64,000 bases of DNA from Escherichia phage FEC14 (MG383452); one strand, 5' to 3'. Positions 1-64,000 are shown, counted from the stretch's first letter. Notes: generated from the sequence alone by a model not told the origin. Translations and numbers: made by a program.

Positions 1-20
1 GTGGGTTATTGAAGAAGTAA

Positions 21-36
21 AGGGGCTTTTGCCCCT
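21..36 (-). terminator. GC-rich hairpin (AGGGGC-TTTT-GCCCCT) with flanking T-run, just 3' of the 50..688 gene
   Basis: Inverted repeat read in sequence; lies immediately downstream of the minus-strand stop at 50; shares the TTATTGAAGAAGTAAA flank with the hairpin near 35245. Confidence 0.4.
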
Positions 37-49
37 TTTATTGAATATT

Positions 50-688
50 TTAAGGTGTTGGATTGACAACGGGAATATGGAACCTGATTCCAGAGACAAT
101 GTCCTTCAGCTGAGGCTTCCAGCCGTCCACCAGGCGGGACAACGCGTTAGAACCAGGATAGACAATAATGATGTCGCTTCCGGTTACATTATGTTGAGGG
201 AATTGTGACATGTATTGCTCCATCGTCACCCCTGGGTCTATCAACACAGGACCGACATCCGAAGATGCATATGTTGCCCCCAAACCGTCGACGCCCCATG
301 CTAGTATTCCATAATCAGGAATATTGGCTTCAGAAGTTATGGTGAATCCGAAGATACGATTCAGCGCAGAAAAATCATACACGCCGTGAGCACTGTCATA
401 TGTCAGATAACCCTTTGACAGCATATCAGCGAATATCGCGTCTGTGTCACCAGTTGCCGGAGTCGGTATGGTAAACAATAACTCACCAGCAGGAGGGGAT
501 GGATACGTGCCGAGCGCATAAAGGCACCAAGCGTCAATGCATTTCTTGATGAATGCTTCAGGCGCGACATAATCCGCAAGGCGCATTGTACCGGAATATT
601 CTGAAGTAATGATCCCTTCCTTCGCGCCCTGAATGGCCAGAAATACCATTATGTGTTCATATCCGGTCTGAGATGGAGTGATATTCAT
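50..688 (-). CDS. hypothetical protein (212 aa), translationally coupled to the upstream transglycosylase gene
   Basis: Long minus-strand ORF co-oriented with neighbours; start overlaps stop of the 688..1305 ORF; no motif recognised. Confidence 0.5.
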   Translation of the reverse strand: MNITPSQTGYEHIMVFLAIQGAKEGIITSEYSGTMRLADYVAPEAFIKKCIDAWCLYALGTYPSPPAGELLFTIPTPATGDTDAIFADMLSKGYLTYDSAHGVYDFSALNRIFGFTITSEANIPDYGILAWGVDGLGATYASSDVGPVLIDPGVTMEQYMSQFPQHNVTGSDIIIVYPGSNALSRLVDGWKPQLKDIVSGIRFHIPVVNPTP

Positions 689-1305
689 TATCTGGTCCTC
701 TTGAGTTTCTCAATCGTGCGCTTATTCATGGCGATCACTCCTGGGTCGACCTTTGGGTTTATTGCCATGCCTTTGAAAGACACACATCGTTGAAGATATT
801 TAGCCTTCTTCACGACGTCGGCTGCATAAGAATTGGATTTCTGGTTACGATTGAACCCAGCATTGTAAGAGGAAAGGGATTTGCGGATGTTTTGGTTATG
901 ATATTCTAGCCAGAAATTCATTTCATCAAGGGCAGCATTGGCAGCATATTCTTGATTGACCAGTAATTTGATCGCCACGTTGGCGTAACACTTCTGTGTT
1001 TTGCATCCCTCCCGTTTCCCGACGGTTTGGACGCGATTTTGAAATGCCCCCATATTAGCCGATTTGAGGTTATTCCGCATGGATACAACATCTTCTCCAG
1101 CGCGGCTTTCCCTCCATGATATTGCGGCGAGAGTGAAACCAAGGTCTTGTTGTTTTCCCACGTGATAGGCTGTGGCCATGGTTGAAAGTTGTTGATCAGA
1201 AAACTCATAATCACATTGGGTGGTACTTTGGGAAGCGTGCACACTCCCGCTGGCAATGGTAAAGGTCACGGACAAGGCCATGGCCTTCAACGTTGTCATC
1301 GTCAT
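688..1305 (-). CDS. secreted lytic transglycosylase (SLT-domain, lysozyme-like)
   Basis: N-terminal signal peptide (MTMTTLKAMALSVTFTIASGSVHA); SLT catalytic motifs ES (ISWRESRAG), GAFQ and SYNAG read in the translation; AAGGAA RBS upstream. Confidence 0.6.
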   Translation of the reverse strand: MTMTTLKAMALSVTFTIASGSVHASQSTTQCDYEFSDQQLSTMATAYHVGKQQDLGFTLAAISWRESRAGEDVVSMRNNLKSANMGAFQNRVQTVGKREGCKTQKCYANVAIKLLVNQEYAANAALDEMNFWLEYHNQNIRKSLSSYNAGFNRNQKSNSYAADVVKKAKYLQRCVSFKGMAINPKVDPGVIAMNKRTIEKLKRTR

Positions 1306-1371
1306 GATGGCGTTCCTTATGTGTTTGTCGACTTGCAGCTCGCTGGAGCCTCCTGACAGGGTTAAAAGATA

Positions 1372-1397
1372 AAGGGCACTTGATATTTAGTGCCCTT
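1372..1397 (-). terminator. hairpin AAGGGCACT-loop-AGTGCCCTT followed by T-rich tract; loop contains a CTAAATA motif
   Basis: Inverted repeat 3' of the 1402..1686 ORF and about 80 nt 5' of the transglycosylase gene. Confidence 0.4.
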
Positions 1398-1401
1398 CAC
1401 C

Positions 1402-2147: not shown

Positions 2148-2462
2148 TCATGACATATCCTCATAATTAGATAGATTGATCAAGAAGGGCAGGTTCCGGT
2201 CATATATGAGGTCAATGGCCTTGCGGCTACCCACAGCCTCACATGTCCAATAACTGTAATTCCCTGCGATCTTCAATGCTAGTCGGACGACATGACGCCT
2301 CATATTGTACTGAGCCAACTGATATCGGGCGCGTGTCTTCTTGCGCCAGCATTGATTCTCCGCTTTGTACTTGTAGAGGATCATCAGGCGAACGGCTTTG
2401 TACAGGCGCTTTTCAGCGCCCTTGGATTTCTTTGATACACGAATCAGGCTACCCATGATCAA
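2148..2462 (-). CDS. hypothetical basic protein (104 aa)
   Basis: Minus-strand ORF abutting gp46 stop; Lys/Arg-rich; no motif recognised. Confidence 0.35.
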   Translation of the reverse strand: MIMGSLIRVSKKSKGAEKRLYKAVRLMILYKYKAENQCWRKKTRARYQLAQYNMRRHVVRLALKIAGNYSYWTCEAVGSRKAIDLIYDRNLPFLINLSNYEDMS

Positions 2463-4792
2463 TCCTTCTTAATCACTTCGGTCATGCCATTACGCAGACC
2501 ATAACGAATGTTATGTTGGAAATATTCTTGGAACTCCTGTTCACGCTGACTGATGACAAACAGATTGTTCCCACCAAATTTATGTTTCAGCATCTCAACC
2601 GATTCTTGTACGCCACGCTCGCTCATGTTCTCAAGGATTTCATCTAACACAAACAGGTTACATTGCACCGACGCCTTGAGGTTGGCCACGTCCCGTAGGG
2701 CTAATGTCACAGCCAGATTGAGTCGGCTGCGTTGTCCTGTAGACAGGGAGAATATGCTTTGCCCTTTACGACCTGCAGCGCTCATGGTGATTTCAAATGT
2801 ATCATCAACAGCAATATCCAAGAACATATTGAGTGCTTCAAGATACTCGTTTATTTTACTATTGAGGAAAGGCAAATACAGGCTGATAATTCGAGCCTTG
2901 GTCTGATCATCTTTTAGGAAGAACAGAAGATGGTTCAGGTCTTGCAATTTCTCATCCAACTCTACGCGCCGCGCATTCAGATCTTCCATTAATGCCGTGA
3001 TGCGAGCGATCTCTCCTTCCAGGGCTTCAGTTGGTGTCGGCTTAACCGCCAATTTACGCTCTAAATCGGCAATGGATGCCTCTAGAGGGGCACGGCGTGA
3101 TTTCAGGCTGGTGAGTTTATCAGCCGTGTCGTTGATACTCTTAGAGAGCTGCTCACGCGCTTGACGGATTGACGTCGTGATATCTTCGTAACGGGTGTCT
3201 ACGGCCTTGAGGACGTCGTTAATTTTGGACTGTTGTTCCCGCTGTAAAGATGTTTTCTCAACAGCAGCGACATCATAGAATCCTTGGATGTCGCGTTTTA
3301 ATGTAGCGATCGCCGATTCCGCTTCTCGGATTTCATTGCGCAAAGCATCCAGTTCTTTGTCAATAACCGAAATCTGAGAAGATAATTCTGAATCTCTGAC
3401 ATTGTAATTCTCAATCAGGGAATTCACTTCTTCTAGGGCTGTATCAACCTGAAGAATCTTGTCAGTCAGTTCACTGATTTGTGGATAATATTGACTTTCA
3501 ATGCGTGATTTGGTATCGTCCGACACTAATTGCGTACACGTAGGGCAAGTGCCCATATCGTGGAAACGTTTGATGGCAGATTCATGTCCTTCCATTTCTG
3601 TTACGAATTTGATACGGAAGTTCTCACCCTGCTGACGCCGCGCTAATGCTTTGTTCAGTTCATCCAGGTTAGCATTCCGTTGGCTGACCAGATCATTTTT
3701 ACGTTCCGCGACTACCGCCATTCTCTCCCGAATTTCTTGTAATGAACGTTCGCCATCAGACACCTCGATACGTTCATAGTCTTCAGCCTTGGTATCAGCA
3801 TCATCCTGAACTGCTTGGATTTTGGCCGCATACTCTTCATTGATGGAATCGATATCCACCTTCATTTCAGCGTTCAGGCGATTACGGACTTCTGATAATT
3901 CAGTTTCTAATTTAGAATCTTGGGCACGGAATTCCGTCAGTTCGTCTTGAGAAGCACCAATATCTGAATTCAAACTATTCAGACGTTCCTTCTCTTGGAC
4001 AAGGATATCAGCAGATTGTTGCTGGATCATCGCATTGGAATTATTGATCTGTTCCAACTGCGCTTGCTGGCCTTTTAAATTTACATCATGAAAGGCGTAA
4101 TCATTGGTGACCGTCGTGAGTTCATTCGTTACTGTCTTGATAGATGCTTTTACATCTTCATTCATCAGACTGAAGAACCCCAAATCCCAGATTGTCTCTA
4201 CCATAGCGCGACGGTCGGCAGTGTACATTTCCGTGAATGGGATGAACTTCTCTTTGCCCAGAACCAGGGAGTTCTCAAACATCTTCTGGTCCACGCCAAT
4301 CAGGTTCACAATATATTTGTTCATGTCGGCTTTGGCCGCATCATTCACGACCTTCTTCCACTCACCGTCTACCATCTGATAGACTTCTACGAAATCAGGT
4401 TTGATACCACGACGGACTTTCCATTCACTTCCTCGAGTGGAGAACTCAACTTCACCCACGCATTCCTTTTTGTTTTGGGAATTGACTAATCCGGCTTTCT
4501 TTTCTTTCTTGCTGTATGTGTCATTATACAGAACGAAGAACAGCAGCCAGACAAGCATGGTGGATTTACCAGCGCCATTGTCATCGGATGTAACCAAGGT
4601 TGCCGAATTGCGTTGGTAATCAATTTCCATGAATTCATTACCGATAGAACGGAAGTTTTTAGCGCGACCGCGATGGAAAGTCAGTTTGTGGGTAATTTCC
4701 CCACGAATTTCAAATGGTACTTCAACAGAAACAGGAGTGTCCGCTTCTTTCAACAGCGAACCAAATTTTGATAATAGGTCTACATTGTTCAT
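2459..4792 (-). CDS. 46: recombination endonuclease ATPase subunit gp46 (Rad50/SbcC-like)
   Basis: Walker A GAGKST near N-terminus, long central coiled-coil, C-terminal LFVLDEILE...NLFVISQREQEF matching T4 gp46 C-terminus (LILDEVFD...VFIISHKD); immediately downstream of the gp47 gene as in T4. Confidence 0.9.
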   Translation of the reverse strand: MNNVDLLSKFGSLLKEADTPVSVEVPFEIRGEITHKLTFHRGRAKNFRSIGNEFMEIDYQRNSATLVTSDDNGAGKSTMLVWLLFFVLYNDTYSKKEKKAGLVNSQNKKECVGEVEFSTRGSEWKVRRGIKPDFVEVYQMVDGEWKKVVNDAAKADMNKYIVNLIGVDQKMFENSLVLGKEKFIPFTEMYTADRRAMVETIWDLGFFSLMNEDVKASIKTVTNELTTVTNDYAFHDVNLKGQQAQLEQINNSNAMIQQQSADILVQEKERLNSLNSDIGASQDELTEFRAQDSKLETELSEVRNRLNAEMKVDIDSINEEYAAKIQAVQDDADTKAEDYERIEVSDGERSLQEIRERMAVVAERKNDLVSQRNANLDELNKALARRQQGENFRIKFVTEMEGHESAIKRFHDMGTCPTCTQLVSDDTKSRIESQYYPQISELTDKILQVDTALEEVNSLIENYNVRDSELSSQISVIDKELDALRNEIREAESAIATLKRDIQGFYDVAAVEKTSLQREQQSKINDVLKAVDTRYEDITTSIRQAREQLSKSINDTADKLTSLKSRRAPLEASIADLERKLAVKPTPTEALEGEIARITALMEDLNARRVELDEKLQDLNHLLFFLKDDQTKARIISLYLPFLNSKINEYLEALNMFLDIAVDDTFEITMSAAGRKGQSIFSLSTGQRSRLNLAVTLALRDVANLKASVQCNLFVLDEILENMSERGVQESVEMLKHKFGGNNLFVISQREQEFQEYFQHNIRYGLRNGMTEVIKKD

Positions 4793-4794
4793 TA

Positions 4795-5910
4795 TTATGC
4801 ATCCAATGTGTTCAAACGTTGTTGGGCAGCATTATAAAATTGTTCTGCAAGTTTGCAAACATTTTCAGGGCGCTGGATATTGTTGGCTGCGCGGATATCA
4901 TTTTTCAAGACTTCTACAGCATCAGTAGCCACCATCTCTTCAGTGACTTCTACCTTCTCGGAAGCAACAGTAATCGTCCGATCGATGAAGTTGTAATCGA
5001 TGCATTTACAGCGCTTCAATGCGTCACAGAACTTTTCATAATGCTTGGCATTGTCACGGTTCTGTACAATCACCTTAACGATTTGCCCTTCAATACCCAA
5101 AACATTGTTTAACCAATCGGGGTCGATCCAATTACCTTCAGTATCAGAAGACATTTGTGTGTAGTCGTATTCCACGAACCGGAACAACGTTTGTTGTTCG
5201 TTGTTGGGGATAAACAATTCCCCGCCATTCATGTCGTCTACATAGAATCCTCGGTTCGTCCCGTCTTTGTGGTCTTCCCAGGTAAGATGATAAGGAGTCC
5301 CAATATACTGAATGTTACCTTCCATCGAACGGGTATGGAAATGTCCGGTATCCACGCGCTCGAATTTCGAAAGGAGCGCCAAGTCGATCTGACCTTTATC
5401 ACATACAGAGGACTGGTACATTTTGAACCCTGCCAACTCCAGATGCGCAAAACAGTACTTGGCGTCTGTATCTTGTATCGCTTTAATGGACGCATCATAG
5501 TTCTCTTTGTTAATCCACGGCAGTAGGAGGGTCTTGACACCTTCAATCATTACTTCAGTTGGTTCGCTGTAATAATGATAAACATCCGGTGCCAATTCAT
5601 TAAGATAAGAAGGCCAGTTAATGCGATTGGACTCTTCTAACGTGATATCATGGTTTCCAACGATGCCATTCCATTTGATACCCGCCTTTCTCAGGGCTGG
5701 CGTTAATTCATCTTTCAACCAATCTTTATCGCGACCATACATGAATTTGCGAACATCAAACGTATCACCAAATTGCCACACTTCTTTAATATCGGCGTCA
5801 ACCAATTCTGGAATAAAATAATTGATGAGATAATTCTTTATGAATTCTCGAACGTAACGGGAACCATTACGGCTCCCGATATGTAAATCGCCAATTTTAG
5901 CAATCGCCAT
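4795..5910 (-). CDS. 47: recombination nuclease subunit gp47 (Mre11/SbcD-like phosphoesterase)
   Basis: Phosphoesterase motifs GDLHIG, GDTFDVRK, VGNHD, GHFH align with T4 gp47 (GDWHLG, GDIFDVRK, VGNHD, GHFH). Confidence 0.9.
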   Translation of the reverse strand: MAIAKIGDLHIGSRNGSRYVREFIKNYLINYFIPELVDADIKEVWQFGDTFDVRKFMYGRDKDWLKDELTPALRKAGIKWNGIVGNHDITLEESNRINWPSYLNELAPDVYHYYSEPTEVMIEGVKTLLLPWINKENYDASIKAIQDTDAKYCFAHLELAGFKMYQSSVCDKGQIDLALLSKFERVDTGHFHTRSMEGNIQYIGTPYHLTWEDHKDGTNRGFYVDDMNGGELFIPNNEQQTLFRFVEYDYTQMSSDTEGNWIDPDWLNNVLGIEGQIVKVIVQNRDNAKHYEKFCDALKRCKCIDYNFIDRTITVASEKVEVTEEMVATDAVEVLKNDIRAANNIQRPENVCKLAEQFYNAAQQRLNTLDA

Positions 5911-6703
5911 TATTTTGTTGCTCCCGTTCTAATGCTCGTTTCTTTGCTTCTTCCCAATCTGGTTCCATAGAACATATTTCGTCTTCCAGATTGAATTGAG
6001 TAGAGCCGAAGTCATAGTCTGAATTATCTTCGGCGTCGGCGGTAATGGTATTTTCACTCTTTGTGAGACATTGAAGTATACCGCGAGGAATTTTCTTATT
6101 CTTTTCCTCTTCTTTGATGGCGATTTGCTTTTGGCGTTCCTTTTCGCGCTGTGCTTCTTTCTTAGTTTCAAAATTTCCGATACGCTCACGGAAGTCCATT
6201 GTTATACCAGTGCTGTCTACGAATGTCTGTTGCTGGAAGTCTGGGTCATCTGATAATGCAGCGAAACCACCTGCTTCTTCAAATGAACGCAACTTGATAT
6301 AATTGTGTTCTTCTTCACTGGTGAGTTTCTTGGCGAATGAACGATCGGCGCACATCGTTACCCAAGAGAAGAAATTGATTTTTCCTTTCTTGCCGATATG
6401 ACTGACGTCAAATGTATGGAGGTAACGAAGAATGTTAACAACGGCCTCACTGACCATGTCTTCGCGGTATGGATAATCACGATAGTTGTAGCGCATACTC
6501 ATGTTCTTAATAATCATCTGAACATTCATGGCCACATAATTGGGGATTCTTGGTAGGGGTGTTCCTTCGGCCAAAGCCTTTTTGCGAGCCGGAATCCAAT
6601 CTCTCAATATTCCAACAACACGGTCATTATCTTCGTCTGTGAAATATTTGGTGACGTTATCACCCCTGTCTACAAAATTCATACCCATCGTGATAATCCT
6701 CAA
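5897..6703 (-). CDS. 55: late-transcription sigma factor gp55-like, with extended charged C-terminal tail
   Basis: Central region (YNYRDY...LHTFD...FAKKLTSEEE) parallels T4 gp55 (FNFSGY...LHNFD...QRIKKERKE); sits directly upstream of gp47 as in T4 (55, alpha-gt, 47, 46). Confidence 0.55.
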   Translation of the reverse strand: MRIITMGMNFVDRGDNVTKYFTDEDNDRVVGILRDWIPARKKALAEGTPLPRIPNYVAMNVQMIIKNMSMRYNYRDYPYREDMVSEAVVNILRYLHTFDVSHIGKKGKINFFSWVTMCADRSFAKKLTSEEEHNYIKLRSFEEAGGFAALSDDPDFQQQTFVDSTGITMDFRERIGNFETKKEAQREKERQKQIAIKEEEKNKKIPRGILQCLTKSENTITADAEDNSDYDFGSTQFNLEDEICSMEPDWEEAKKRALEREQQNNGDC

Positions 6704-7242
6704 ATACCAATGAATTCATTGAAAGAACCAACGACTTTCTTGACCGAGAAACGGTTATTTTCAAGAACCATTGAACTATCTTCTTTGGCTCTAACGCTCC
6801 ACTGATCCGCAATTTCGTTGCCCATCGTTCCTGCATGACCTTTCACCCATTTTAATTCAAGTTCACAAATTGAACAAACTTTGTCATAATAATCGAACAA
6901 CTCGAGCAGAAGTTCTGTGTTCTTAGGCGGCATTCCTTCATATTCCCATTTACGACGCCACTCCAAAACGCTATTGATAACATATTGGCTGTCGGATATG
7001 ATGCGGGCTGGGGGAATGCAGCGTTCACCGCAATTAGAGAATTTCCATAGGATCTTCATTGCGTTTATAACCCCGAGTAACTCAGCTATATTGTTCGTTG
7101 ACGGCGGGGGTAAATACCCATAAAACACTTTCCATTGCTCTCCAGTGATTGGACTGATGGCAAATGCCCAACCAGCGGCTCGTGTCTTCTGAGGGGATGA
7201 TGCCCCGTCAGTGTATATTTCAATCATGTATAAGTATCCCAA
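6700..7242 (-). CDS. ribonuclease HI (bacterial RnhA-type)
   Basis: RNase H motifs IYTDGAS, NNIAEL, SDSQYVIN, VKGHAG..GNE.AD align with E. coli RnhA (IFTDGSC, NNRMEL, TDSQYV, VKGHAGHPENERCD). Confidence 0.8.
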   Translation of the reverse strand: MGYLYMIEIYTDGASSPQKTRAAGWAFAISPITGEQWKVFYGYLPPPSTNNIAELLGVINAMKILWKFSNCGERCIPPARIISDSQYVINSVLEWRRKWEYEGMPPKNTELLLELFDYYDKVCSICELELKWVKGHAGTMGNEIADQWSVRAKEDSSMVLENNRFSVKKVVGSFNEFIGI

Positions 7243-7269: not shown

Positions 7270-8037
7270 ATGTCAGAACGCGCATATCGTTTCAGTCTGA
7301 CCGCCCCAGAAATTGAGCGTTTGCTCTTGTCTATAAATGATTCCATACAAAAGCTGGACATCATTTATGACTACACGGCGGGTGGGACTGAAGGTCAAGT
7401 CGCAGCTGCGTCAGCTGTCAAAAACATGTGGCTAAAACTTAATGAGATGGTCACAGGTGAAGGTCTTAAAGACGCAATCAATGCAGCTAACGACAGCAAC
7501 GTATTCACCGATTATTATAAGTCTATTTTAGATCGCGAAACTTGGAAATTTATTGGTTCTCCGGCAGATTTATTAGCAAGGGACGATATAGACACTTCCA
7601 ATTTTGAAGGCGGTGAAGTAATCCTCCTACAAAAGAACGCTTCGGGCAACCCAGAATTCCAATACTGGAAAAGAACTCCTGTGGCAGGAGGTGATCCAAT
7701 ATTTGGTTGGGAATCTGTTTATGAAGGAAACTCCAACGACTCTTCTATTGATATTCCGGTTGTTGGGACCAGCATACTGAAGACAATCCCAAAAGCATTG
7801 TTTCATATGGTCGAATTCAGAGTACACGCTCGAGAGTCTACCCTCGGTCATTGGCAGGACACTGATGGCAAAATCGGTTATCGTGGTGAAGATCTGATTT
7901 ATAGCCTGTATAATCATGTTCAAACCAAACCGATCGCAAATATATCTTTCAGCCAAGATGTGGACAATATGATTATCACGATAACGACACTTGAACCAAA
8001 TATCAAGTGCCATTTATCGTTTATTGCGGGTTATTAA
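7270..8037 (+). CDS. hypothetical protein (255 aa), one of the few plus-strand genes
   Basis: Long plus-strand ORF in the gap between two minus-strand genes, GAGGAA RBS before ATG; stop overlaps the DinG stop convergently. Confidence 0.5.
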   Translation: MSERAYRFSLTAPEIERLLLSINDSIQKLDIIYDYTAGGTEGQVAAASAVKNMWLKLNEMVTGEGLKDAINAANDSNVFTDYYKSILDRETWKFIGSPADLLARDDIDTSNFEGGEVILLQKNASGNPEFQYWKRTPVAGGDPIFGWESVYEGNSNDSSIDIPVVGTSILKTIPKALFHMVEFRVHARESTLGHWQDTDGKIGYRGEDLIYSLYNHVQTKPIANISFSQDVDNMIITITTLEPNIKCHLSFIAGY

Positions 8038-9755
8038 ACCTCAAACACTGCATCGGTGAACCAGGTTGGGAAGAATTCTGGGTTGCGCATCATAAGAGAT
8101 TCAAAGGATGAATCAATGATGTATGTCGCAGCCCAGTCATCAACACCCCTGACCGAACGCCCACACATTTGAACAATGCGCAGTACTGCATTGCGGAAAT
8201 ATGCCGACGGATCCACTGAATTGATATGTGCTATCAGTGGATCGCCCAGATAATCATAAGGGACTTTGATCAGTATTTGGAAACGGCTGTAATCCCCTTT
8301 GAAATCATAACCTTCTTCCATAGCCGGACTGGCAATGACGCATGGGGACTTTGTTCTAAAAGCATTTTCCATAATATCCATCAACGCCTTTCGGGTGCGC
8401 GGAACATGGATAAAATTCTGATATTTACTGAATTTTTGTATTGCCAAGGCGCGATCATAACTCACTGTATGGATAATGCCGGACTGACCTGGGTGGAACG
8501 CGATTATTTCATCAATATATTCCGTCAACCTTTTCATTTCATAGTCGCCCATATTGTTAGTCATCTTCACTATGGGCATATAGTTGACTTTTCTGTTTTC
8601 AATTGGGATAGGGTTGCCGATCTGAATGGAATGATAATCCCCCTGTCGAATACCCAATGAACGAGCATAAGAATCTATGCCGCAGATCGTTGCTGACATA
8701 TGAACGTGATAATCGGCTTTTCGGAATAACCCGAATTCGCTTACATCAGAAGGCATAACAGGTTTAAACCGGATAAAATCTTCCCCCTTTTCTTGCACAA
8801 TAAATGTACTTGCTTGGGTTTGTGACATAATACCGCAATAATCACTCAAGTTATGCAAGACATCTATAATGTCTGCGAGTTTCATCACTTGGCTTTCACT
8901 CAAGCGATCATCTTCGACCAATTCTTCAAGAACTTCCAACAAATTTTCTACTTTGAGATGGAGGTCTTCAAACATTGAATGTAGTTCACCAGACAAAGAA
9001 TATAACTTGCCCAGGACATAGTCCTTGGTGCGTTCTACGATATCACCAATGGTAGAGACGATCTCCTTGCCCTCAGGGATAGAACGCAGCCCCTCCACGG
9101 CCTTTGTATTGTATTCCATGATCGTGTGCTCTAGGAGCGTAGAGGGCATTTTATGGCACTCGTCAAGGATCAGCATATCGGAACGGTTTTCGGGCTTCAT
9201 GCAGATGGTTGTACACATTTCGATCATCATGGCAGCATTAGTACAACGCAATGATGAAATATCCGTCCACAAATTACGCGCCTGTACATAAGGACAGCGG
9301 CGTTTGCTACAATGCCCGTCACGGCATGCTATACGGCATTGGACAGCATTGTAATACACATCTGGATGTACGTGGCAACGATAGTTCTTCTTGCCTTTTA
9401 GGATGTCTATCGCCACCGCCTTTTCAGCAGCATACTGATCTTGCAGACCTTTGGTCGGGGTGCTGATAGAAGTGCGAAATTGCCCATAAGGATCAGCCTG
9501 TAAAACTAGATGGCGAATCACTTTATGAATGGTAGTGCCAATCAAAGATTTACCGACACCTGTCGGAGCTTCAATGATGACATGTTTAACCTTTTTGTTG
9601 ATAAGCGCATCTATGGCTTCGACGATGCATTCCATCTGGCCTGGGTTCGCTTTGTCATATGGGAATTCATCTTTGGTAAGGCGTTGTATTTCTTCCACAG
9701 GAACCTTACGGCCTATGGCGTCAATCGCCTTTCGGTGTTGATTAAATGCTGTCAC
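8034..9755 (-). CDS. DinG/XPD-family (Rad3-like) DNA helicase with Fe-S cluster cysteines
   Basis: Walker A APTGVGKS, DEAH box LILDECH, four-Cys cluster (CHVH...CRIACRDGHCSKRRCPY) typical of Fe-S helicases; AGGAGGAA RBS. Confidence 0.8.
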   Translation of the reverse strand: MTAFNQHRKAIDAIGRKVPVEEIQRLTKDEFPYDKANPGQMECIVEAIDALINKKVKHVIIEAPTGVGKSLIGTTIHKVIRHLVLQADPYGQFRTSISTPTKGLQDQYAAEKAVAIDILKGKKNYRCHVHPDVYYNAVQCRIACRDGHCSKRRCPYVQARNLWTDISSLRCTNAAMMIEMCTTICMKPENRSDMLILDECHKMPSTLLEHTIMEYNTKAVEGLRSIPEGKEIVSTIGDIVERTKDYVLGKLYSLSGELHSMFEDLHLKVENLLEVLEELVEDDRLSESQVMKLADIIDVLHNLSDYCGIMSQTQASTFIVQEKGEDFIRFKPVMPSDVSEFGLFRKADYHVHMSATICGIDSYARSLGIRQGDYHSIQIGNPIPIENRKVNYMPIVKMTNNMGDYEMKRLTEYIDEIIAFHPGQSGIIHTVSYDRALAIQKFSKYQNFIHVPRTRKALMDIMENAFRTKSPCVIASPAMEEGYDFKGDYSRFQILIKVPYDYLGDPLIAHINSVDPSAYFRNAVLRIVQMCGRSVRGVDDWAATYIIDSSFESLMMRNPEFFPTWFTDAVFEV

Positions 9756-11570: not shown

Positions 11571-11889
11571 GGGGTTCTCCCTGAGACAGTATGGTTTTCA
11601 TCTGTTCACGCGTGATAATTGTTTCAACAAGATTCTCGTCAATCATCATTTCGTTTAACAGTTCACAACCCAGCACGTGTGGTCGCGCCATATACGGCAT
11701 CGTGTTGAGTTTTTCTTCTATGTCAAGAACGCGCTTGACAGTCAGACCCATAGAAGAAAAGGGAACAGGATAAAAGAATGAAATGATCTGATTATCCATC
11801 CCGTTTGAAAATCTTACCAACAATACATCACACCATACGCCGGACATATTACACCTCCAGACGGTTACAATGAGAAAGCGCGTTATCAA
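11560..11889 (-). CDS. hypothetical protein (109 aa)
   Basis: Minus-strand ORF in co-oriented array. Confidence 0.35.
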   Translation of the reverse strand: MITRFLIVTVWRCNMSGVWCDVLLVRFSNGMDNQIISFFYPVPFSSMGLTVKRVLDIEEKLNTMPYMARPHVLGCELLNEMMIDENLVETIITREQMKTILSQGEPHVE

Positions 11890-12538: not shown

Positions 12539-12541
12539 AAT
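12495..12541. repeat. perfect 21-bp tandem duplication (2 copies plus partial) spanning the start codon of the 11849..12538 gene
   Basis: ATAATACGGCTCTTGTTGTTC repeated head-to-tail, read directly. Confidence 0.7.
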
Positions 12542-12560
12542 ATAGATCTCTCAAATAAAA

Positions 12561-49705: not shown

Positions 49706-49736
49706 TCAATCATTAATTCTTTTGAGGAATTGATAA

Positions 49737-49949: not shown

Positions 49950-49954
49950 AAAGA

Positions 49955-49972: not shown

Positions 49973-49977
49973 TTCTC

Positions 49978-56221: not shown

Positions 56222-56320
56222 TATACAGCCAACAAACAGATAGAAATAAAAACCCAGTTCCTCCACCTGATAGTTTTGAACTTCCAGTTCCTGTCAGGTT
56301 AACGAGACATAGCAAAAGAA

Positions 56321-56339
56321 AGCCCCCTTATTGGGGGCT
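56321..56339 (-). terminator. hairpin AGCCCCC-TTATT-GGGGGCT followed by TTCTTTTGC on the minus strand
   Basis: 3' of the 744-aa tailspike gene. Confidence 0.5.
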
Positions 56340-56345
56340 TGTATT

Positions 56346-58580
56346 TTAGATTGTTACGTTAGCAATACTTTCCGTGAACCAACCAGATGGAGTCTTAACT
56401 AAAGTAACCATCATCTTAGTTGCATAGTCTACCCTCAAAGCAGTAAAGGCTCCTGCCACATTAAAGTGGAATCTGTCCGTTACAGTAGGCAATGTTGTAT
56501 CAGCACGTTTAAGCACTACCCCACCACCAGATGAATCAGAGATAACTGTCACACGCTGGCCCATATATCCACCGCTAAACCCACTAAGGGTAAGAGTAAT
56601 ACCGGAACCAGTGACTAATACAATATCAACACCATCTACAGGAATAGATGCTAGGGTCTGAGTTGTAGTGTACTTATCAACAGCATTCTGACTAACCCCC
56701 AATTGCTGAATCTTAACTGGAGTACCGTTGCGGTTGAAGTTAATTAGGTTGGAGTCTTTGTTTACGTAAAAAGAGTAGTTAGGAATAGCGCCGGATGCGA
56801 GCATTGCTGTTTCATCTACTGACTCTAATTCTCGCAACTCTTTGTGATAGCGGTTGTAGTTTCTGTTCTGGATATACTTAGCATTCCATTGAGTAAACCA
56901 AATACCACCAAAACCACCTGATTCAGATGTAGAGATTACATAACCATCATCACCACCAGGCATTGATGCGATGTACCCAACAGAATCACTTGTGTTGATA
57001 TCCCCAGTAGGAGCTAACCCCCAAGTAACTAGGTCACGACTAATCCATACTCGGTAGTTAGTACGACCAATAGAATTATCACCTACACCATTAGCACAAG
57101 TAAACGCCCAAGTAAGAACACCATTAACCCCATCAAAAATAGGAACCAGGTCACCCTTACTATCCGATGTAACTAAATCAGATAAGTGCTGCCAGTTCTT
57201 AAACTGATGATCACTGATATAGAATTTCTGAAGCCCTTTAAGGTCTGTGGTGTGGTAAGCACGAGAGTTCATCACCATACGACCATCCGGCAAAAGGTTC
57301 AGTCCGACTTCCCCACCAGATTCTTCGGAACTAAGTACGTAGTCCATGCTGTACTTAATGTCATACTTCATGATGGTAAGGAAAGAATCAACCCGTGAAC
57401 CAGTGACGGTAGACACAATCATTGCCATCTTACCATCCGGTAAAACAACTGGTTTAGTTGGTGAAGTCCAGATAAAATCTGCCGTTGCTGGCTTAAGGGT
57501 AGCAGTAATGTTAGCTGGTGTACGCCATATAGTAGGAGCTTCCGCATCACAGTAGGTAACATATATCTGGGATGATGTATTAGGGTCATTGCCTGGCTGT
57601 GAGTATCCCCAACCCAACTGGCCTTTGCAGGAAGTAAAGTAACAGTATACCCGACCATCTACTGGGTTATACACAGCAGCAATCTCACCGTTCTGATACG
57701 TAGCCCCAAAGTTAGCTACCACTACCTTAGCCGACCAAGACCACCCATTATCAATGGAGTATTTCATAACGATATTACATTGCTGATCTGGAGTAGCACC
57801 AATATCTGTATTGTTACCATGCAACTCATTACAGAAAATCATCAGAGTACCATCACCAGTTTTAACAATCTGGGGCATACGGTAGAAGACGGTATCCGTA
57901 GGGTTAAGTTTATCAATAGCAACGTCTGGAGCAGACCATGCTAAGTTTTTACCAGAGTGACGCTGAACGCCACGGATATGGTGATAAACATTAGGAATAA
58001 CGGTTCTCACCATATTCTCTTGGTTCTGCCATGCAGCTTCTTCGGCAAATTCTTCTTCAATGGTTTTGCCATTAGCCAGTACTACCATGGATGCACCACT
58101 GGTACTGTTAAGCTGTTCCTTCAGATAAGAAGCACCCAAGCCAATCCAATTATCATCACTGGATGGTAAAGAGTTCTGAGGTACAACTTTAGGTAATGAA
58201 CCATTCCAACGATACTGGATACCATTGTGGGTAAGTACATCATTCTTTGTGGATACTATTGCACCAGTAGTAAAAGAACCAGGTAATACATTATATTCAT
58301 TGCGTTGGGAAGCTAGTTCGCCCAGGTCTACAGAACCCCCAGAGTGTACAAGCAGAGCACTGGCGCTAAGGCTAATAGCCGTGGTTCCTGCTGGAATATC
58401 TACAGGCAAGGAATACGCTCTCTGTGTTTCCTTGTCATAAATAACCTTATATCCAGACAAGGACTGTCCTGATTTCGCATAAACGACTTCCGACTTTTTA
58501 CACCCAAATTTACGAGCAATACTGTCTTTGTTCGATTCTTTTGAAGTAGAACCTTTTGGTTGAGCAAATTGCGGATTCAT
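56346..58580 (-). CDS. tailspike protein with sialidase-like (BNR/Asp-box) beta-propeller domain
   Basis: Asp-box YSIDNGWSWS and FRIP-like YRMP read in translation; N-terminal about 150 aa shared with the 710-aa tailspike. Confidence 0.7.
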   Translation of the reverse strand: MNPQFAQPKGSTSKESNKDSIARKFGCKKSEVVYAKSGQSLSGYKVIYDKETQRAYSLPVDIPAGTTAISLSASALLVHSGGSVDLGELASQRNEYNVLPGSFTTGAIVSTKNDVLTHNGIQYRWNGSLPKVVPQNSLPSSDDNWIGLGASYLKEQLNSTSGASMVVLANGKTIEEEFAEEAAWQNQENMVRTVIPNVYHHIRGVQRHSGKNLAWSAPDVAIDKLNPTDTVFYRMPQIVKTGDGTLMIFCNELHGNNTDIGATPDQQCNIVMKYSIDNGWSWSAKVVVANFGATYQNGEIAAVYNPVDGRVYCYFTSCKGQLGWGYSQPGNDPNTSSQIYVTYCDAEAPTIWRTPANITATLKPATADFIWTSPTKPVVLPDGKMAMIVSTVTGSRVDSFLTIMKYDIKYSMDYVLSSEESGGEVGLNLLPDGRMVMNSRAYHTTDLKGLQKFYISDHQFKNWQHLSDLVTSDSKGDLVPIFDGVNGVLTWAFTCANGVGDNSIGRTNYRVWISRDLVTWGLAPTGDINTSDSVGYIASMPGGDDGYVISTSESGGFGGIWFTQWNAKYIQNRNYNRYHKELRELESVDETAMLASGAIPNYSFYVNKDSNLINFNRNGTPVKIQQLGVSQNAVDKYTTTQTLASIPVDGVDIVLVTGSGITLTLSGFSGGYMGQRVTVISDSSGGGVVLKRADTTLPTVTDRFHFNVAGAFTALRVDYATKMMVTLVKTPSGWFTESIANVTI

Positions 58581-58611
58581 AATAAGAATCTCCTGTTTTT
58601 CTCTAGTAAAT

Positions 58612-58630
58612 ACCCTCCGAAGAGGGGTAT
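58612..58630 (-). terminator. hairpin ACCCTC-CGAAGA-GGGGT between the 926-aa and 744-aa tailspike genes
   Basis: Inverted repeat immediately 3' of the 926-aa gene; AGGAGA RBS of the next gene follows. Confidence 0.4.
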
Positions 58631-58634
58631 ATTT

Positions 58635-61415
58635 TTAAATAGAAGAATCCAATATACGGTAACTAATTAACTTAGTAGGGTCTACAGGATTAATCAGGTT
58701 GTAGTACCGTGAAGCTACATAATCATTCTCAGAAGAGAACATACCAACATACACTTTAGCACCTACACCAGAACAGGCATCCCCACCAGCATTGCTATCC
58801 GAGAAGAATGTTAATGAAGAAGTTAATCCGAATATAGAATTAAATGGTACAGCTAAATAAGCGCCTCGGAATGACCGTCTGATTCTCTTACCCGTCTGAA
58901 TATTAAGAATACTCCACCAGAAATATCCAGGTTTAGCACCAATAGCTATATGATATGGCACACCACTTTGTAGTTTAAGGTCGTTAGGTAAATCCCCAGA
59001 TAAAATTTGGGTTGTACCATCGCCCCCCAATAGCAAAGCAATTGTTTGTTTTCCAGAAGCGTCTATAACTAATTGAAGATGAAGACTGTTGGATGTATCA
59101 CTAAACCCTGAACCAATGGCCATGAAGTTAAATACTTCAGCTCCAGATATGGTGGGTACTACAACAGCAGCCATGGTAATACCTTCTGGACCTGCTGTTC
59201 TTGAATACAGTAATTTATCTTTGTTGGCTTGTGATAGTCTCAGACCATTTACTTGCCCTACAGAAGATGGGACACTTACATAAACAGGTGTAGTGCTAAC
59301 ACCATCAAATGTAGGGGTCTCGTTCATGGTTTGCAAACCAGTCTTGGAATAATTAACCAATCCGTTAATGCTCAGGTCGGAATTGGTGGGGTTGATAATA
59401 TTGTTATCACCAATAAAGTTAATGCCCATATAACCAGTCTCAACCACACCATTAATGGTGACACTACAATCATTAGACAGGAACTGAAAATTGCCTGCAC
59501 TAGAGTTAGCACCTGAACCACTATTCGCGGCATAATTGAGTCCTACGAATCCGTTGATAACTGCATCACTTTTGTTAAATACGATGTTGTAGAAAGTGTT
59601 GTTAGCATTGATGCCGTTACGATTGGTGTTCAATCCGTTCATGGAAATTGAATATGACTCGCTAATCTCAATACCATTCCCGCCACAATCTTGTACCTCA
59701 ATACCATTAATAACCATATTCTGGCTGTTATTAATAGTAATGCCTGGAAACTGTCCTACTGTACCATAAGGTTGCCAGTTAGCCCAAATGAATTTACCGC
59801 CAATAATACGACCATTACCACAACCATCAAGAACTAGACATTGTTTACCGCAGGTATTAACCTGGATATTTGTCCAAGTCCAATCAGTAGTAGCACAACG
59901 GACACCCACCTGATTGATGTGGTTGACTAAAAGAGAATCTGTAGTAACACTAAAGTTACCACTATCAATATTTAACCCATATTCATCAAAACCTGCTATA
60001 TGGACCTTAGAAATACACAAGTCCCGTCTTGGGTCTGCGGTAGTGTGGAACGGATAATCGGCTGAGAGACCTGAAGGAGTTTCTACATAGATACCTGTTG
60101 TGCCCGCAGTAAATGACGTGCCTTGTTGTGCACCTGTGCCATATACCCCAAAGGCGTCTAATACAATAAGGGAGCATGTATCTTTTATGGTAATACAATT
60201 CCCAGTAGCAGAAGGCAACTGATGCAACCTTGAGTAATGTAATCCAGACCCATAAATAGACGACGTATTATATTTTAACTGGATATTGCTAACGTAATGT
60301 ACACCAGTTAATTGTGTGGCCTTACCACTATCCACACAAGATTGTACTGGAATAGTATCATCATTAGAACCACCCAAAGCACCAAACATGAATGGGTTAA
60401 CTCTATCAGCATTAACACGTAACCATGCTGCGCCGCCAACAGTTTTGATCACAGTACCGTTATTATCAGTCTTTCCTGTACCATCAATTAACGCACGGAA
60501 TACCCCTCCACCAAGAAGAGTACCCGCAGTGTGTTGCTTAAGAATAATGCGTTGTCCATCCATAGTGGGTTCAGTATTCCTGAGATCAGCAACAGAATGG
60601 CATTCTCCAATATACTTGGCACCATCATTGCGCCCCAGAGTGTTTATCACATTAATAAATGAATCTTCTAAAGGCAACAAATCAACCTGCACATCACCTG
60701 GGTTGTAATTCAATTTCCCAGCAGATACAGAAGAAATGACAGAACCATCAGGAATGGTTGGTAAACCATAACTGGTTTGCGTCGCTATATCATAAACAAC
60801 TTTCTTCCCATCCAACAAAGATATGGTGTCCGTACTAACGATGACTTCAGAGTCTTTTACATTAGCAGAACGGGCGATTTCTTGAATACTTCGGTCAAAC
60901 GCCGGACTGATATTCGGTTGTTTAACAGACATTTCAGCGACTACCCAAACGCCTGCAGTCAGTGCAGTTTGCAAAGACACTTTCCCTGTCGTGCTGTTAT
61001 AGGAATATTCAATTTCGGGTGTTTTGTACTCGCCACCGATATAAAGAGATTGGACACCATAGGATGTGAAATCAGGAGTGAACTCGGTTTCACCCCCTAC
61101 GGCTTGAAATTTGTATATGCGGATACCTTTGGCTGTATCTTCTGGCGAAAGAATTTTATCGAATAAGCAATACACAACATCGCCTTTGGACAATGCGCGC
61201 CCGAGATTCAACGTATTTCCTTCGATTTCAAAGTTGTCTAACGGAACTTGCATACCACCGTTGATTGTGACTACGCCAGTGACAGGATAGAACGGCAAGG
61301 AAAGGAAAGTTTCTCCACCAACATTTGATTTATACGTGAAAGGAATCTGGTGGGGAGCTGTGATTACGCCGCCGAATAATTCTTCTACATTTCTGGTCAT
61401 TTGAAAATACCCCAT
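58635..61415 (-). CDS. tailspike protein with parallel beta-helix (depolymerase-like) domain (926 aa)
   Basis: Repetitive Asn/Gly/Ile-rich rungs (e.g. NGIEISESYSISMNGLNTNRNGINANN) typical of right-handed beta-helices; distinct N-terminus from neighbours. Confidence 0.7.
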   Translation of the reverse strand: MGYFQMTRNVEELFGGVITAPHQIPFTYKSNVGGETFLSLPFYPVTGVVTINGGMQVPLDNFEIEGNTLNLGRALSKGDVVYCLFDKILSPEDTAKGIRIYKFQAVGGETEFTPDFTSYGVQSLYIGGEYKTPEIEYSYNSTTGKVSLQTALTAGVWVVAEMSVKQPNISPAFDRSIQEIARSANVKDSEVIVSTDTISLLDGKKVVYDIATQTSYGLPTIPDGSVISSVSAGKLNYNPGDVQVDLLPLEDSFINVINTLGRNDGAKYIGECHSVADLRNTEPTMDGQRIILKQHTAGTLLGGGVFRALIDGTGKTDNNGTVIKTVGGAAWLRVNADRVNPFMFGALGGSNDDTIPVQSCVDSGKATQLTGVHYVSNIQLKYNTSSIYGSGLHYSRLHQLPSATGNCITIKDTCSLIVLDAFGVYGTGAQQGTSFTAGTTGIYVETPSGLSADYPFHTTADPRRDLCISKVHIAGFDEYGLNIDSGNFSVTTDSLLVNHINQVGVRCATTDWTWTNIQVNTCGKQCLVLDGCGNGRIIGGKFIWANWQPYGTVGQFPGITINNSQNMVINGIEVQDCGGNGIEISESYSISMNGLNTNRNGINANNTFYNIVFNKSDAVINGFVGLNYAANSGSGANSSAGNFQFLSNDCSVTINGVVETGYMGINFIGDNNIINPTNSDLSINGLVNYSKTGLQTMNETPTFDGVSTTPVYVSVPSSVGQVNGLRLSQANKDKLLYSRTAGPEGITMAAVVVPTISGAEVFNFMAIGSGFSDTSNSLHLQLVIDASGKQTIALLLGGDGTTQILSGDLPNDLKLQSGVPYHIAIGAKPGYFWWSILNIQTGKRIRRSFRGAYLAVPFNSIFGLTSSLTFFSDSNAGGDACSGVGAKVYVGMFSSENDYVASRYYNLINPVDPTKLISYRILDSSI

Positions 61416-61434
61416 AAAGGATTTGCCAATATGG

Positions 61435-61441
61435 GGTATTT
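61435..61441 (-). promoter_or_regulatory. candidate late promoter CTAAATACCCCAT upstream of the 926-aa tailspike
   Basis: Part of an about 50-nt module nearly identical to that upstream of the 710-aa tailspike. Confidence 0.45.
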
Positions 61442-61505
61442 AGGCTGAACTAATAAAATTTATAATAAGATCCCCCCGCTTTTGGCGAGGAGGGATGGTT
61501 GTTAA

Positions 61506-63638
61506 TCATATCAATCCGTAAATGACATTGTGTATTGCGATACCACCAACAATAGAGGAAACATTGAAATTAATTTCAGCTTTGTAAGCTCCTGGCGGAA
61601 CGCAATCCACCAAAGCATAAAAGTTGAACGTGTTTCCTACTGGGATGTTATATCCTATGGAATCCGCGACAGCATTTCCTTGCTGGTCCAGGAATCTAAT
61701 TGATGCCAGGGTGGTGGTTGTATTTTTAGCCCAAAAACCAAGTTGAAAATAACGCCCAGGCTCACAGTCAATGATTGTCTGGGTGAAATTAGCCGCTGCA
61801 CCCACTGATGGTACGGATAAGACAAAAGAAGTTGAAAACATTAAATCATTAGGGACATCATTTCCTACAGTAGCGGTGACAACGCCGGATCCAGTTTGTG
61901 ACAGCGCCCAGTTAGATATATTATTAAACTGTCCTGAACCGTTACTAATACTGTTTATATGAGGGCTTACAATGCATCCTAAATCCCAGTTACTTGTGAT
62001 AAATCCTGCGCGTGGATAGCAACCTCTAGACATTACTTTTTTACTTAATCCGCCTATCAACTGCCTTGTGGCAAATCCAGTAGCAATCGTTGTATTCCCA
62101 TAGAGTGGTAGCGAACAATTATTTAGAATAACAACCCCATCCCCGTTGTTTACAATAGGTACTGTAGAATAATCATTTGGCAACAGTATCGTCGAATCAC
62201 TGATGCTTAATCGTGAACTACCATCCACAGTAAACCCAACGAAACTCTGACCTGGTTGATACTCAATGTTACCGTTTGTGAAAACCATAGTTGCGTTATC
62301 AGATAACGCGACAACAGGGTCAAAATATCCTGATTTTTTACCTGCTGGCAGAGAGCAGCTATCGAATATAAATTGACCATTAACAAACGTGAAAGGTCCA
62401 CCGTTGTCAACCATCCAACAATGATTAAATTTTATAACCTCACCGGAATTCGCTGGTGAATTGAAAATAACAGAATTTGTAAAACTTCTGGACAACGTAC
62501 ATTTATCAAAAAGAATACGATATGCATTATCAAGAAACTCAATTCCGGCAGTTGAGATAAACCCGCAATTAGATATTCTTAACTCTGAGACTTCTCCACT
62601 GGTAGAACCACCGATCGCCAATTTCCTGGTCCCTTTTCCAACAAATGACACTCCAGTCATTAACGCAGTTGCGTTAATTACATCTCTATTGGTGTAATCC
62701 GTGTCTGTATTAACAATGGTTAGATAGTAGCCGCCCGTTGCAGATGCAGATTCTATTAGAGTACATTTATTTTTTCCAATAAGTGCACCTTTTGCTATAT
62801 CAAAAATAATCGGTGTTGTTATCTCACCAGAAACAGGGACTACACAGTCAAATCCGACGGCATTTATTTTATTGATGAATATAGCCAAATCTCCGGTTCC
62901 TGTATAACCAGCTTCGTACACATCCACCACACCGTTGAATAATTTCCTTTTCCAAACGACACCATTGCCTTGGAAAGTAACGATATTATCTACCACAGTA
63001 TCTGAGTTAACAGCCACCATAACACCGCCACCAAGATTAAACCCGTCAACATACGAATCAAGAATTATAGAATCACCAATTAATCCTGCTATTGATGATA
63101 ATTCAGAAACTGATGATACGGTTCCTATATAAGATAAGCCATTCGGTTTATTTAAATTACTTTTCAGAGATGCAACACCAACACTCAACCATGCACCTAA
63201 ACCAACGCCACCAGATGTTTCAGGTGTTGAGCCAGCATCGACAGTTTTAGGAAGTGAACCATCCCATCGATATTTTTTATCATCGTGAACAAGAAGTTCA
63301 TTTTTCACATTAATGATATGGCCGAAATTAAAAGAACCAGGTAAAGTCACATATTCTTCGCGGCTTACTGCTAATTCCCCAAGGTCAACAGAGCCAGCGG
63401 AATGAGTGAGGATGGCTTGTTCGTTCAGGCTTATCGCAGTCGTTCCTGAAACAATACCCGAAGGAAGAGAATAAGCCCGTTGGGTAGACTCATCATAAAT
63501 TACTTTAAATCCACCGAGATCAATACCGACAGTGAAATAAATGACTTCGTCTTCTTTGACACCGAAATTTCGAGCGATAGATTGTTTGTTAACTTCTATG
63601 GAAGTGGAGCCGCGTGGTTGATTGAATTGAGAAATCAT
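61506..63638 (-). CDS. tailspike protein with beta-helix domain (710 aa), sharing N-terminal anchor domain with the 744-aa tailspike
   Basis: N-terminal about 150 aa about 60 percent identical to the 744-aa protein (QPRGSTS...KVIYDESTQRAYSLP...GSVDLGEL...YRWDGSLPK). Confidence 0.7.
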   Translation of the reverse strand: MISQFNQPRGSTSIEVNKQSIARNFGVKEDEVIYFTVGIDLGGFKVIYDESTQRAYSLPSGIVSGTTAISLNEQAILTHSAGSVDLGELAVSREEYVTLPGSFNFGHIINVKNELLVHDDKKYRWDGSLPKTVDAGSTPETSGGVGLGAWLSVGVASLKSNLNKPNGLSYIGTVSSVSELSSIAGLIGDSIILDSYVDGFNLGGGVMVAVNSDTVVDNIVTFQGNGVVWKRKLFNGVVDVYEAGYTGTGDLAIFINKINAVGFDCVVPVSGEITTPIIFDIAKGALIGKNKCTLIESASATGGYYLTIVNTDTDYTNRDVINATALMTGVSFVGKGTRKLAIGGSTSGEVSELRISNCGFISTAGIEFLDNAYRILFDKCTLSRSFTNSVIFNSPANSGEVIKFNHCWMVDNGGPFTFVNGQFIFDSCSLPAGKKSGYFDPVVALSDNATMVFTNGNIEYQPGQSFVGFTVDGSSRLSISDSTILLPNDYSTVPIVNNGDGVVILNNCSLPLYGNTTIATGFATRQLIGGLSKKVMSRGCYPRAGFITSNWDLGCIVSPHINSISNGSGQFNNISNWALSQTGSGVVTATVGNDVPNDLMFSTSFVLSVPSVGAAANFTQTIIDCEPGRYFQLGFWAKNTTTTLASIRFLDQQGNAVADSIGYNIPVGNTFNFYALVDCVPPGAYKAEINFNVSSIVGGIAIHNVIYGLI

Positions 63639-63670
63639 GATAATACCCCATAAAGGATGACCAATATGGG

Positions 63671-63677
63671 GTATTTA
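63671..63677 (-). promoter_or_regulatory. candidate late promoter CTAAATACCCCAT upstream of the 710-aa tailspike
   Basis: Second copy of the shared upstream module. Confidence 0.45.
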
Positions 63678-63708
63678 GTCTGAACTAATCAAATTTATGA
63701 ACAAAGGT

Positions 63709-63744
63709 ATAATAAGAACCCCGCCGAAGCGGGGTTCTTATTAT
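63709..63744 (-). terminator. extended palindrome ATAATAAGAACCCCGC-CGAA-GCGGGGTTCTTATTAT
   Basis: Third copy of the AACCCCGCCGAAGCGGGGTT hairpin, here with longer palindromic arms; 3' of a truncated upstream gene. Confidence 0.55.
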
Positions 63745-64000
63745 GATTCTATAATTTTATAGGATAGAGAAACATTACCATCAACTGGAGCAGCATCGAT
63801 TCCTGTCGGTCTTGTTGCGGTCTTAACCATGACACCAGCGATAGTTTGTCCAGCAGTTGCACCAATATACTTAGAGCAATTTACTGAATAAAATAATTGC
63901 CTGTATTCAATATTACCTTGAACCTCACTTAGAACAACATAGGCCGCACCAGCATTAACTGAACAGTTTGTGTGTATGTTTACCTTCTCCCCTGTGGACA
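63742..64000 (-). CDS. 3' end of a further minus-strand gene, probably another tailspike/tail fibre (5' part lies beyond the window)
   Basis: Hand translation of the open frame ending ...APVDGNVSLSYKIIES; C-terminus loosely resembles that of the 926-aa tailspike. Confidence 0.4.

Follow-up and report, generated by a model that had tools for sequence, protein, structure and literature searches.

The 64,000-nt window analyzed here, taken as one strand of Escherichia phage FEC14 (MG383452), encodes replication and recombination genes of the T4 type on the same strand as the late head, neck, and sheath genes. It is almost certainly an ordinary segment of a Kuttervirus genome (ViI-like, family Ackermannviridae) with a layout found across the family. 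Given its close identity to known ViI-like phages with the same arrangement, this layout is already known: it is the published architecture of a well-studied genus, with little significance beyond correct classification. As an example, it illustrates module shuffling in the T4 superfamily (Pantevenvirales), where gene content and internal order are kept and module placement and orientation are not.

Megablast searches were run on the three thirds of the window separately. Each third showed colinear 96-98% nucleotide identity, over 88-100% of the query, to more than 100 Kuttervirus genomes (CBA120, PhaxI, SFP10, Se-E, BSP101, and others), with more than 118 records per third in the 95-99% identity band. 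Local blastn placed 95.7% of the window colinearly on positions 62,077-128,032 of CBA120 (NC_016570), and gp23 of the window shares 99.5% protein identity with its CBA120 counterpart, whereas the T4 orthologues of window proteins reach only 24-45% amino acid identity. The sequence-only reading, which had proposed a distant T4-like lineage, possibly ViI-like, is therefore well founded. What would have spoken against it, a T4-genus phage of the same arrangement that is closely similar at the nucleotide level, was looked for and did not appear.

CBA120 belongs to Ackermannviridae, Cvivirinae, Kuttervirus; this genus includes the species ViI and falls within the order Pantevenvirales, which also holds the T4 group, T4 itself being placed in Straboviridae. 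In the practice of the International Committee on Taxonomy of Viruses, a nucleotide identity of about 70% marks the genus level, and the values obtained here lie above it. Other features point in the same direction. Gene order and orientation are of the ViI type and match CBA120 gene by gene from orf113 to orf213 on the same strand, and for every window gene they are colinear with CBA120 and other Kuttervirus members (PhaxI, SFP10, Se-E, ECML-4, and ViI). The genus typically has a cluster of up to four tailspike protein (TSP) genes with conserved N-terminal anchors next to a VriC-like gene; in the window, three complete TSP genes and the 3' fragment of a fourth lie beside such a gene. The family motif CTAAATAcCcc is present. 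The VriC-like gene and the position of the tailspike cluster are shared with CBA120 and its relatives, as are an intein in TerL and a GIY-YIG gene between gp18 and gp19.

Published descriptions agree on the arrangement. The CBA120 gene order was reported as "very different" from that of T4, with "everything in the same order" in ViI, CBA120, and AG3; gp7-10, gp11/12, the long fibres, and gp29 were listed as missing relative to T4, and the four tailspike/fibre genes orf210-213 as the main variable region (PMC3184105). Gene order was also found to be conserved among four ViI-like phages, the region from gp23 to gp6 being largely T4-like in order (PMC3296691). In LIMEstone1 and AG3 (Limestonevirus and Agtrevirus), gene order is strongly conserved with ViI and CBA120, with other tailspike numbers and types and more homing endonucleases (PMC3296691). 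In our comparison, nucleotide identity between these two genera and the window was no higher than about 60-80%, and they carry the same TerL intein at 72% amino acid identity.

Gene identities were assigned independently of transferred names, using Pfam, PHROGs, and tblastn with T4 proteins. In the resulting curated list of 72 genes, 69 open reading frames (ORFs) or gene fragments lie on the minus strand and account for 90.9% of window bases, and only three genes (7270-8037, 28608-28973, and 32246-32944; 2.9% of the window) lie on the plus strand. The GC skew is negative nearly throughout, consistent with a single coding strand. Following transcription (64000 to 1), the window starts with the 3' end of TSP4, followed by TSP3, TSP2, TSP1, the VriC-like gene, and two small virion proteins; next come gp13-14-15-16-17-18, a homing endonuclease, gp19-20-68-like-21-22-23, about 12 small genes, and gp3; the remainder comprises uvsY, an exonuclease, uvsW, gp45-44-62-regA, a MazG-like gene, about 25 accessory genes, a helicase, RNase H, and gp55-47-46.

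The late modules are as follows:
43511-50787, minus strand: neck, packaging, and sheath module, in T4 order from gp13 to gp18
49978-50787, minus strand: gp13 (phrog_211; tblastn with T4 gp13, E 5e-9)
49034-49675, minus strand: gp14 (Pfam)
48333-49031, minus strand: gp15 (Pfam)
47650-48336, minus strand: gp16, TerS (Pfam)
45459-47669, minus strand: gp17, TerL (Pfam)
43511-45439, minus strand: gp18, sheath (Pfam)
42994-43452, minus strand: free-standing GIY-YIG homing endonuclease between gp18 and gp19 (phrog_5123, E 8e-94), whose CBA120 counterpart orf195 was described as a segD homologue (PMC3184105)
37166-42963, minus strand: head module, in T4 order gp19, 20, 68-like, 21, 22, 23
42430-42963, minus strand: gp19 (Pfam)
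40680-42362, minus strand: gp20, portal (Pfam)
40142-40459, minus strand: gp68-like scaffold protein (phrog_3503)
39466-40134, minus strand: gp21, protease (Pfam)
38580-39419, minus strand: gp22, scaffold (Pfam)
37166-38488, minus strand: gp23, major capsid protein (Pfam)
31763-32260, minus strand: gp3-like tail completion or tail tube terminator protein (phrog_45, E 3e-33; CBA120 orf169)

The replication and recombination modules, with the genes next to them, are:
28979-31709, minus strand: uvsY, exonuclease, and uvsW unit
31254-31709, minus strand: uvsY (Pfam UvsY)
30508-31281, minus strand: PD-(D/E)XK exonuclease (Pfam PDDEXK_1)
28979-30481, minus strand: uvsW (UvsW_N and helicase domains)
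28284-28978: boundary between the uvsW and gp45 units, holding a minus-strand terminator and a plus-strand gene
28608-28973, plus strand: 121-aa ORF in this gap (phrog_4255, E 1e-61), whose counterpart is not annotated in the CBA120 RefSeq record
25612-28283, minus strand: clamp and clamp-loader module gp45, gp44, gp62, regA, in T4 order
27600-28283, minus strand: gp45 (phrog_223, E 2e-65)
26533-27522, minus strand: gp44 (Pfam AAA and Gp44_lid)
26106-26528, minus strand: gp62 (Pfam Phage_clamp_A)
25612-26076, minus strand: regA (Pfam Translat_reg, E 4e-35)
24726-25682, minus strand: MazG-like gene (phrog_2144), downstream of regA in place of gene 43
8034-9755, minus strand: DinG/Rad3-type helicase (Pfam Helicase_C_2)
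7270-8037, plus strand: phrog_3833 gene between RNase H and the helicase
6700-7242, minus strand: RNase H (Pfam RNase_H, E 6e-24)
2459-6703, minus strand: recombination and late-sigma module gp55, gp47, gp46, in T4 order without the intervening small genes of T4 (CBA120 orf118-120)
5897-6703, minus strand: gp55, late sigma factor (phrog_234, E 2e-53)
4795-5910, minus strand: gp47, SbcD-like (phrog_100, E 2e-109; tblastn with T4 gp47)
2459-4792, minus strand: gp46, SbcC-like (tblastn with T4 gp46, E 2e-22)

In T4 (NC_000866), genes 45, 44, 62, regA, 46, 47, and 55 are on the minus strand and genes 13 to 24 on the plus strand, so that the co-stranded placement of replication and late structural genes, first remarked on in the sequence-only reading, is a real difference between the two phages. 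The broader claim that gene order departs from T4 holds for the placement and orientation of the modules, but not for the order inside them, which is that of T4 (13 to 23; 45, 44, 62, regA; 55, 47, 46). The 45-regA module lies upstream of 55-47-46 in the window and downstream in T4, and gene 43 is not found beside regA. In T4, uvsW (plus) and uvsY (minus) converge, whereas in the window they are co-oriented; uvsY does precede uvsW in the direction of transcription, as had been suggested, with the exonuclease gene between them. As in T4, the late-transcription components gp55 and gp45 are both encoded.

The best explanation of this layout is that the modules were inherited from the ancestor shared with T4, with their internal order kept (13, 14, 15, 16, 17, 18, 19, 20, 68, 21, 22, 23; 45, 44, 62, regA; 55, 47, 46) and their relative order and orientation changed. 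The outer baseplate and fibre genes of T4 are replaced by the VriC-like protein and four tailspike cassettes, and the family layout has no gp24-type vertex paralogue. One long leftward block carries the T4-type replication and recombination modules together with the head, neck, and sheath modules. Mixing early and late genes on one strand requires insulation and separate promoters. The co-oriented units are very probably insulated by the strong intrinsic terminators predicted at their ends, with CTAAATAcCcc ahead of late units, which makes early and late genes separate transcription units and provides temporal control without the use of opposite strands. The temporal class of a gene would then be set by promoters and terminators rather than by strand.

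Strong intrinsic terminators are predicted on the minus strand directly at the ends of units:
63744-63709, minus strand: after TSP4
61492-61472, minus strand: after TSP3
58626-58613, minus strand: after TSP2
56340-56320, minus strand: after TSP1
49975-49954, minus strand: after gp13
43502-43483, minus strand: after gp18
38566-38549, minus strand: after gp22
37147-37126, minus strand: after gp23
28953-28934, minus strand: after uvsW
24703-24679, minus strand: after the regA-MazG unit

The motif core CTAAATAY occurs at 10 sites, all on the minus strand, against 3.6 expected over both strands, and only one of 100 shuffles reaches this count. Nine of the ten sites lie in sequence not listed as coding and precede a start that is either annotated or inferred. 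The distance to the start is 20-30 nt for six genes (TSP3, TSP2, VriC, gp14, gp22, and uvsW), 9 nt at gp18, and 78 nt at orf114; one site precedes a small ORF inferred from CBA120 orf192. The form CTAAATAC is found directly upstream of uvsW (30504-30511, minus strand) and also upstream of TSP2 and TSP3. CTAAATAcCcc is a known family-specific regulatory motif that is also carried by the related phage EspM4VN (PMC7283392). From its position and its resemblance to the T4 late element, we infer that it serves as a late promoter, recognized by the gp55 homologue acting with gp33 and the gp45 clamp.

Two CTAAATAT motifs occur at orf114 (796-803 and 1383-1390, minus strand), one upstream of the start and one internal. 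The internal copy lies in the same gene that carries the remark "possible alternate site of translation initiation" in the CBA120 annotation, and it may hint at a nested late transcript encoding a shortened protein.

Other promoter elements were tried and set aside. Sites with one mismatch to TATAAATA, the exact late octamer of T4, had no consistent position upstream of late genes; with the exact octamer not enriched either, this element was dropped in favor of CTAAATAY. The second family motif, TTCAAT-N14-TATAAT, has no exact match in the window, and with up to two mismatches it gives 19 sites against 11.4 expected (4 of 100 shuffles yield as many), a signal too weak for mapping early promoters. 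A generic sigma-70 scan was barely above background and uninformative.

Several observations weigh against this account of the window. The proposed gp55-dependent role of CTAAATAcCcc as a late promoter is deduced from where the sites lie; three of them (one ahead of uvsW, two at orf114) belong to genes that are not clearly late, and gp23, gp20, gp19, and gp3 are preceded by variant forms only. The exact octamer TATAAATA was found twice in the window, against 2.2 expected. With regard to the ordinary character of the segment, no record in the phage collection searched (dated August 2025) exceeds 99% identity over the full window, and for 44-64 kb coverage never rises above 90%, so the exact isolate, or its combination of tailspikes, is not represented in that collection.

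The last point bears on the tailspike region, which contains the following genes:
56346-64000, minus strand: tailspike cluster
63744-63998, minus strand: TSP4, only the C-terminal 85 codons, at the window edge, with the N-terminal anchor outside the window
61506-63638, minus strand: TSP3 position, 710 aa (Pfam Tail_spike_N)
58635-61415, minus strand: TSP2 position, 926 aa (phrog_4818)
56346-58580, minus strand: TSP1 position, 744 aa (Pfam Tail_spike_N)
51343-56181, minus strand: VriC-like or DUF4815 virion protein, 1612 aa (Pfam DUF4815, E 7e-61; phrog_4322; CBA120 orf209)
51042-51329 and 50717-51058, minus strand: two small virion-protein genes beside the VriC-like gene

Four tailspike genes upstream of gp13 had been proposed to replace the T4 fibre genes. 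The cluster is present, but within the window it consists of three complete genes and the 85-codon fragment of a fourth; the DUF4815/VriC-like gene, if it had been counted as the fourth, is not a tailspike. The notion of replaced fibre genes needs correction as well, since in the T4 record gene 13 is immediately preceded by genes 9 to 12 and wac, which encode outer baseplate, short-fibre, and fibritin proteins, and not by the long-fibre genes.

The window might derive from a Kuttervirus isolate or species that is new in its mix of tailspike receptor-binding modules rather than in gene order, a view for which the chances appear evenly balanced. The limited coverage of 44-64 kb speaks for it, as do the scattered affinities of the modules. 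TSP1 is 100% identical to its counterparts in ECML-4, FSL SP-063, and BPS3, and its receptor-binding part (56256-58177) has no counterpart in CBA120; TSP2 shares 99.6% identity with Se-E and 99.2% with PhaxI; and PhaxI matches the TSP3 query (61506-64000) at 99.7% over 71%. In CBA120, the receptor-binding modules either differ from those of the window or occupy other TSP positions. The C-terminal two-thirds of TSP3 resemble CBA120 orf213 (TSP4, 92.5%) and its N-terminus orf212 (TSP3), and the TSP4 fragment resembles the C-terminus of orf210 (TSP1, 95.9%). On the other side, every module has a close known relative, tailspike module swapping in Kuttervirus is already described (PMC8432352), and most of TSP4 lies outside the window, with the collection dated as stated above. 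As judged from sequence comparison, the exact combination may be new, with every module known. The tailspike set is also the practically useful content of the window, since host range can be predicted from it: the TSP2 module corresponds to modules of phages that infect O157:H7, and ECML-4 and several Salmonella phages carry an identical TSP1.

The two remaining explanations fare far worse than the Kuttervirus assignment. A T4-genus phage (Tequatrovirus/Straboviridae) that underwent a recent large inversion or rearrangement would account for the presence of T4 core genes in T4 order within modules, and yet it is extremely improbable: no T4-type phage occurs among the matches listed or the named groups, the identifiable ones being Ackermannviridae and hosts; protein identity to T4 orthologues is as low as given above; and none of gp24, gp9-12, and wac stands where T4 has it, with tailspikes upstream of gp13 instead. 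That the co-orientation is an assembly artefact of a chimeric or mis-joined contig can practically be dismissed, as nothing specific favors it, 149-163 genomes sequenced independently show the arrangement colinearly (counted at 80% coverage or more for each of the first two query thirds), and it has been described for ViI, CBA120, AG3, and LIMEstone1 (PMC3184105, PMC3296691).

The absence of gp24 after gp23, another feature singled out at the outset, was confirmed. A phmmer search with the window gp23 revealed no second copy among all six-frame window ORFs of at least 40 aa, and tblastn with T4 gp23 and gp24 returned the gp23 locus as the only match, whether run against the window or against the complete CBA120 genome. 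Because neither contains a gp24-type paralogue, an unrecognised vertex protein can be envisaged: the capsid vertices of ViI-like phages might be built from a protein unlike gp23, for instance one encoded by the small late genes at 32945-37155, although we consider this improbable. Alternatively, pentamers of gp23 itself could occupy the vertices. A literature search for a cryo-electron microscopy description of Ackermannviridae capsid vertices returned nothing relevant. Separately, the "major head protein (x2)" of phage 38 was considered as a gp24 and rejected, since it corresponds to a frameshift-split gp23 in a record with several split genes.

The block between gp23 and gp3 contains:
32945-37155, minus strand: about 12 small genes, mostly of unknown function, without gp24
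32246-32944, plus strand: gene at the edge of this block

Within the block, three consecutive minus-strand ORFs at 32945-34377 together match the 500-position profile of phrog_289 ("GTP-binding domain") in pieces, namely 33913-34377 (profile 8-146), 33708-33965 (133-207), and 32948-33673 (259-500). CBA120 annotates an identical split (orf174/173/171), which could reflect either gene fission or a PHROG clustering artefact. The only two exact TATAAATA sites of the window (33907-33914 and 33696-33703) precede the second and third pieces. A 22-bp tandem repeat of 2.4 copies (35227-35280) is located upstream of the ORF at 34724-35188.

TerL measures 736 aa, compared with 610 aa in T4, and carries an insert:
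46866-47342, minus strand: TerL mini-intein, 159 aa (TerL residues 110-268), splitting Walker A as ARQSGK/C...SHN/TTVV (slashes mark the junctions)

The hallmarks of inteins were found at this position inside Walker A, including an N-terminal Cys, a C-terminal His-Asn, and a +1 Thr on the C-extein (K/CVRGD...FLSHN/T). When residues 110-268 are removed, TerL gives one continuous alignment with T4 gp17 across Walker A. The insert matches inteins with solved structures in PDB, including gp41-1 at E 8e-4, and its match to Pfam Intein_splicing is below threshold (27.3 bits against a cutoff of 35.8). It is spread across Ackermannviridae, and the GenBank record of phage Marshall annotates the region as "intein". 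On this sequence evidence, the insert is a known P-loop mini-intein of class 1 that is predicted to splice. Over Ackermannviridae, intein identities show a peak at 99% or above (87 records) and a band at 60-80% (137 records). Within Kuttervirus, two apparent allele classes (about 100% versus 78.6% amino acid identity) occur in flanking genomes that are 95-98% identical, which hints at an exchange of the intein or of a TerL segment. When the literature was searched for work on the TerL intein of Ackermannviridae, nothing specific came up.

Outside the tailspikes, the differences from CBA120 are small accessory indels. Three stretches of the window have no CBA120 counterpart (1799-2141, 19031-19383, and 23414-23518), and four short CBA120 stretches, including orf149 and orf154, are missing from the window. 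In CBA120, the leftward block with both module sets runs from about 25 to 133 kb with few plus-strand genes. Thymidine hypermodification (hydroxymethyl-dUMP synthase and related genes) and a characteristic virion morphology are further traits of the genus; the thymidylate-synthase-like gene of CBA120 is located near 36 kb, beyond the part that corresponds to the window. The stretches specific to the window include two ORFs:
1667-1996: 109-aa ORF, matching the C-terminal part of phrog_464
19022-19381: 119-aa ORF, phrog_4254

The remaining small ORFs, about 40 in number, all fall in PHROG families, mostly of unknown function. No tRNA was detected by ARAGORN in the window, and an Rfam scan of the window at the gathering threshold gave no match.

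Several short tandem repeats occur in the window. A perfect 15-bp repeat of 2.3 copies (31730-31763), which reads GTTATAATACAGAGA on the minus strand and contains TATAAT in every copy, lies directly upstream of uvsY; in the T4 record, the uvsY promoter region is the replication origin oriF, and the repeat may be a candidate origin or promoter mark. A 22-bp tandem repeat at 28501-28542 lies inside the approximately 700-bp gap between uvsW and gp45, and a perfect 21-bp tandem repeat of 2.3 copies (12495-12542) is located at the 5' end of the ORF at 11849-12538.

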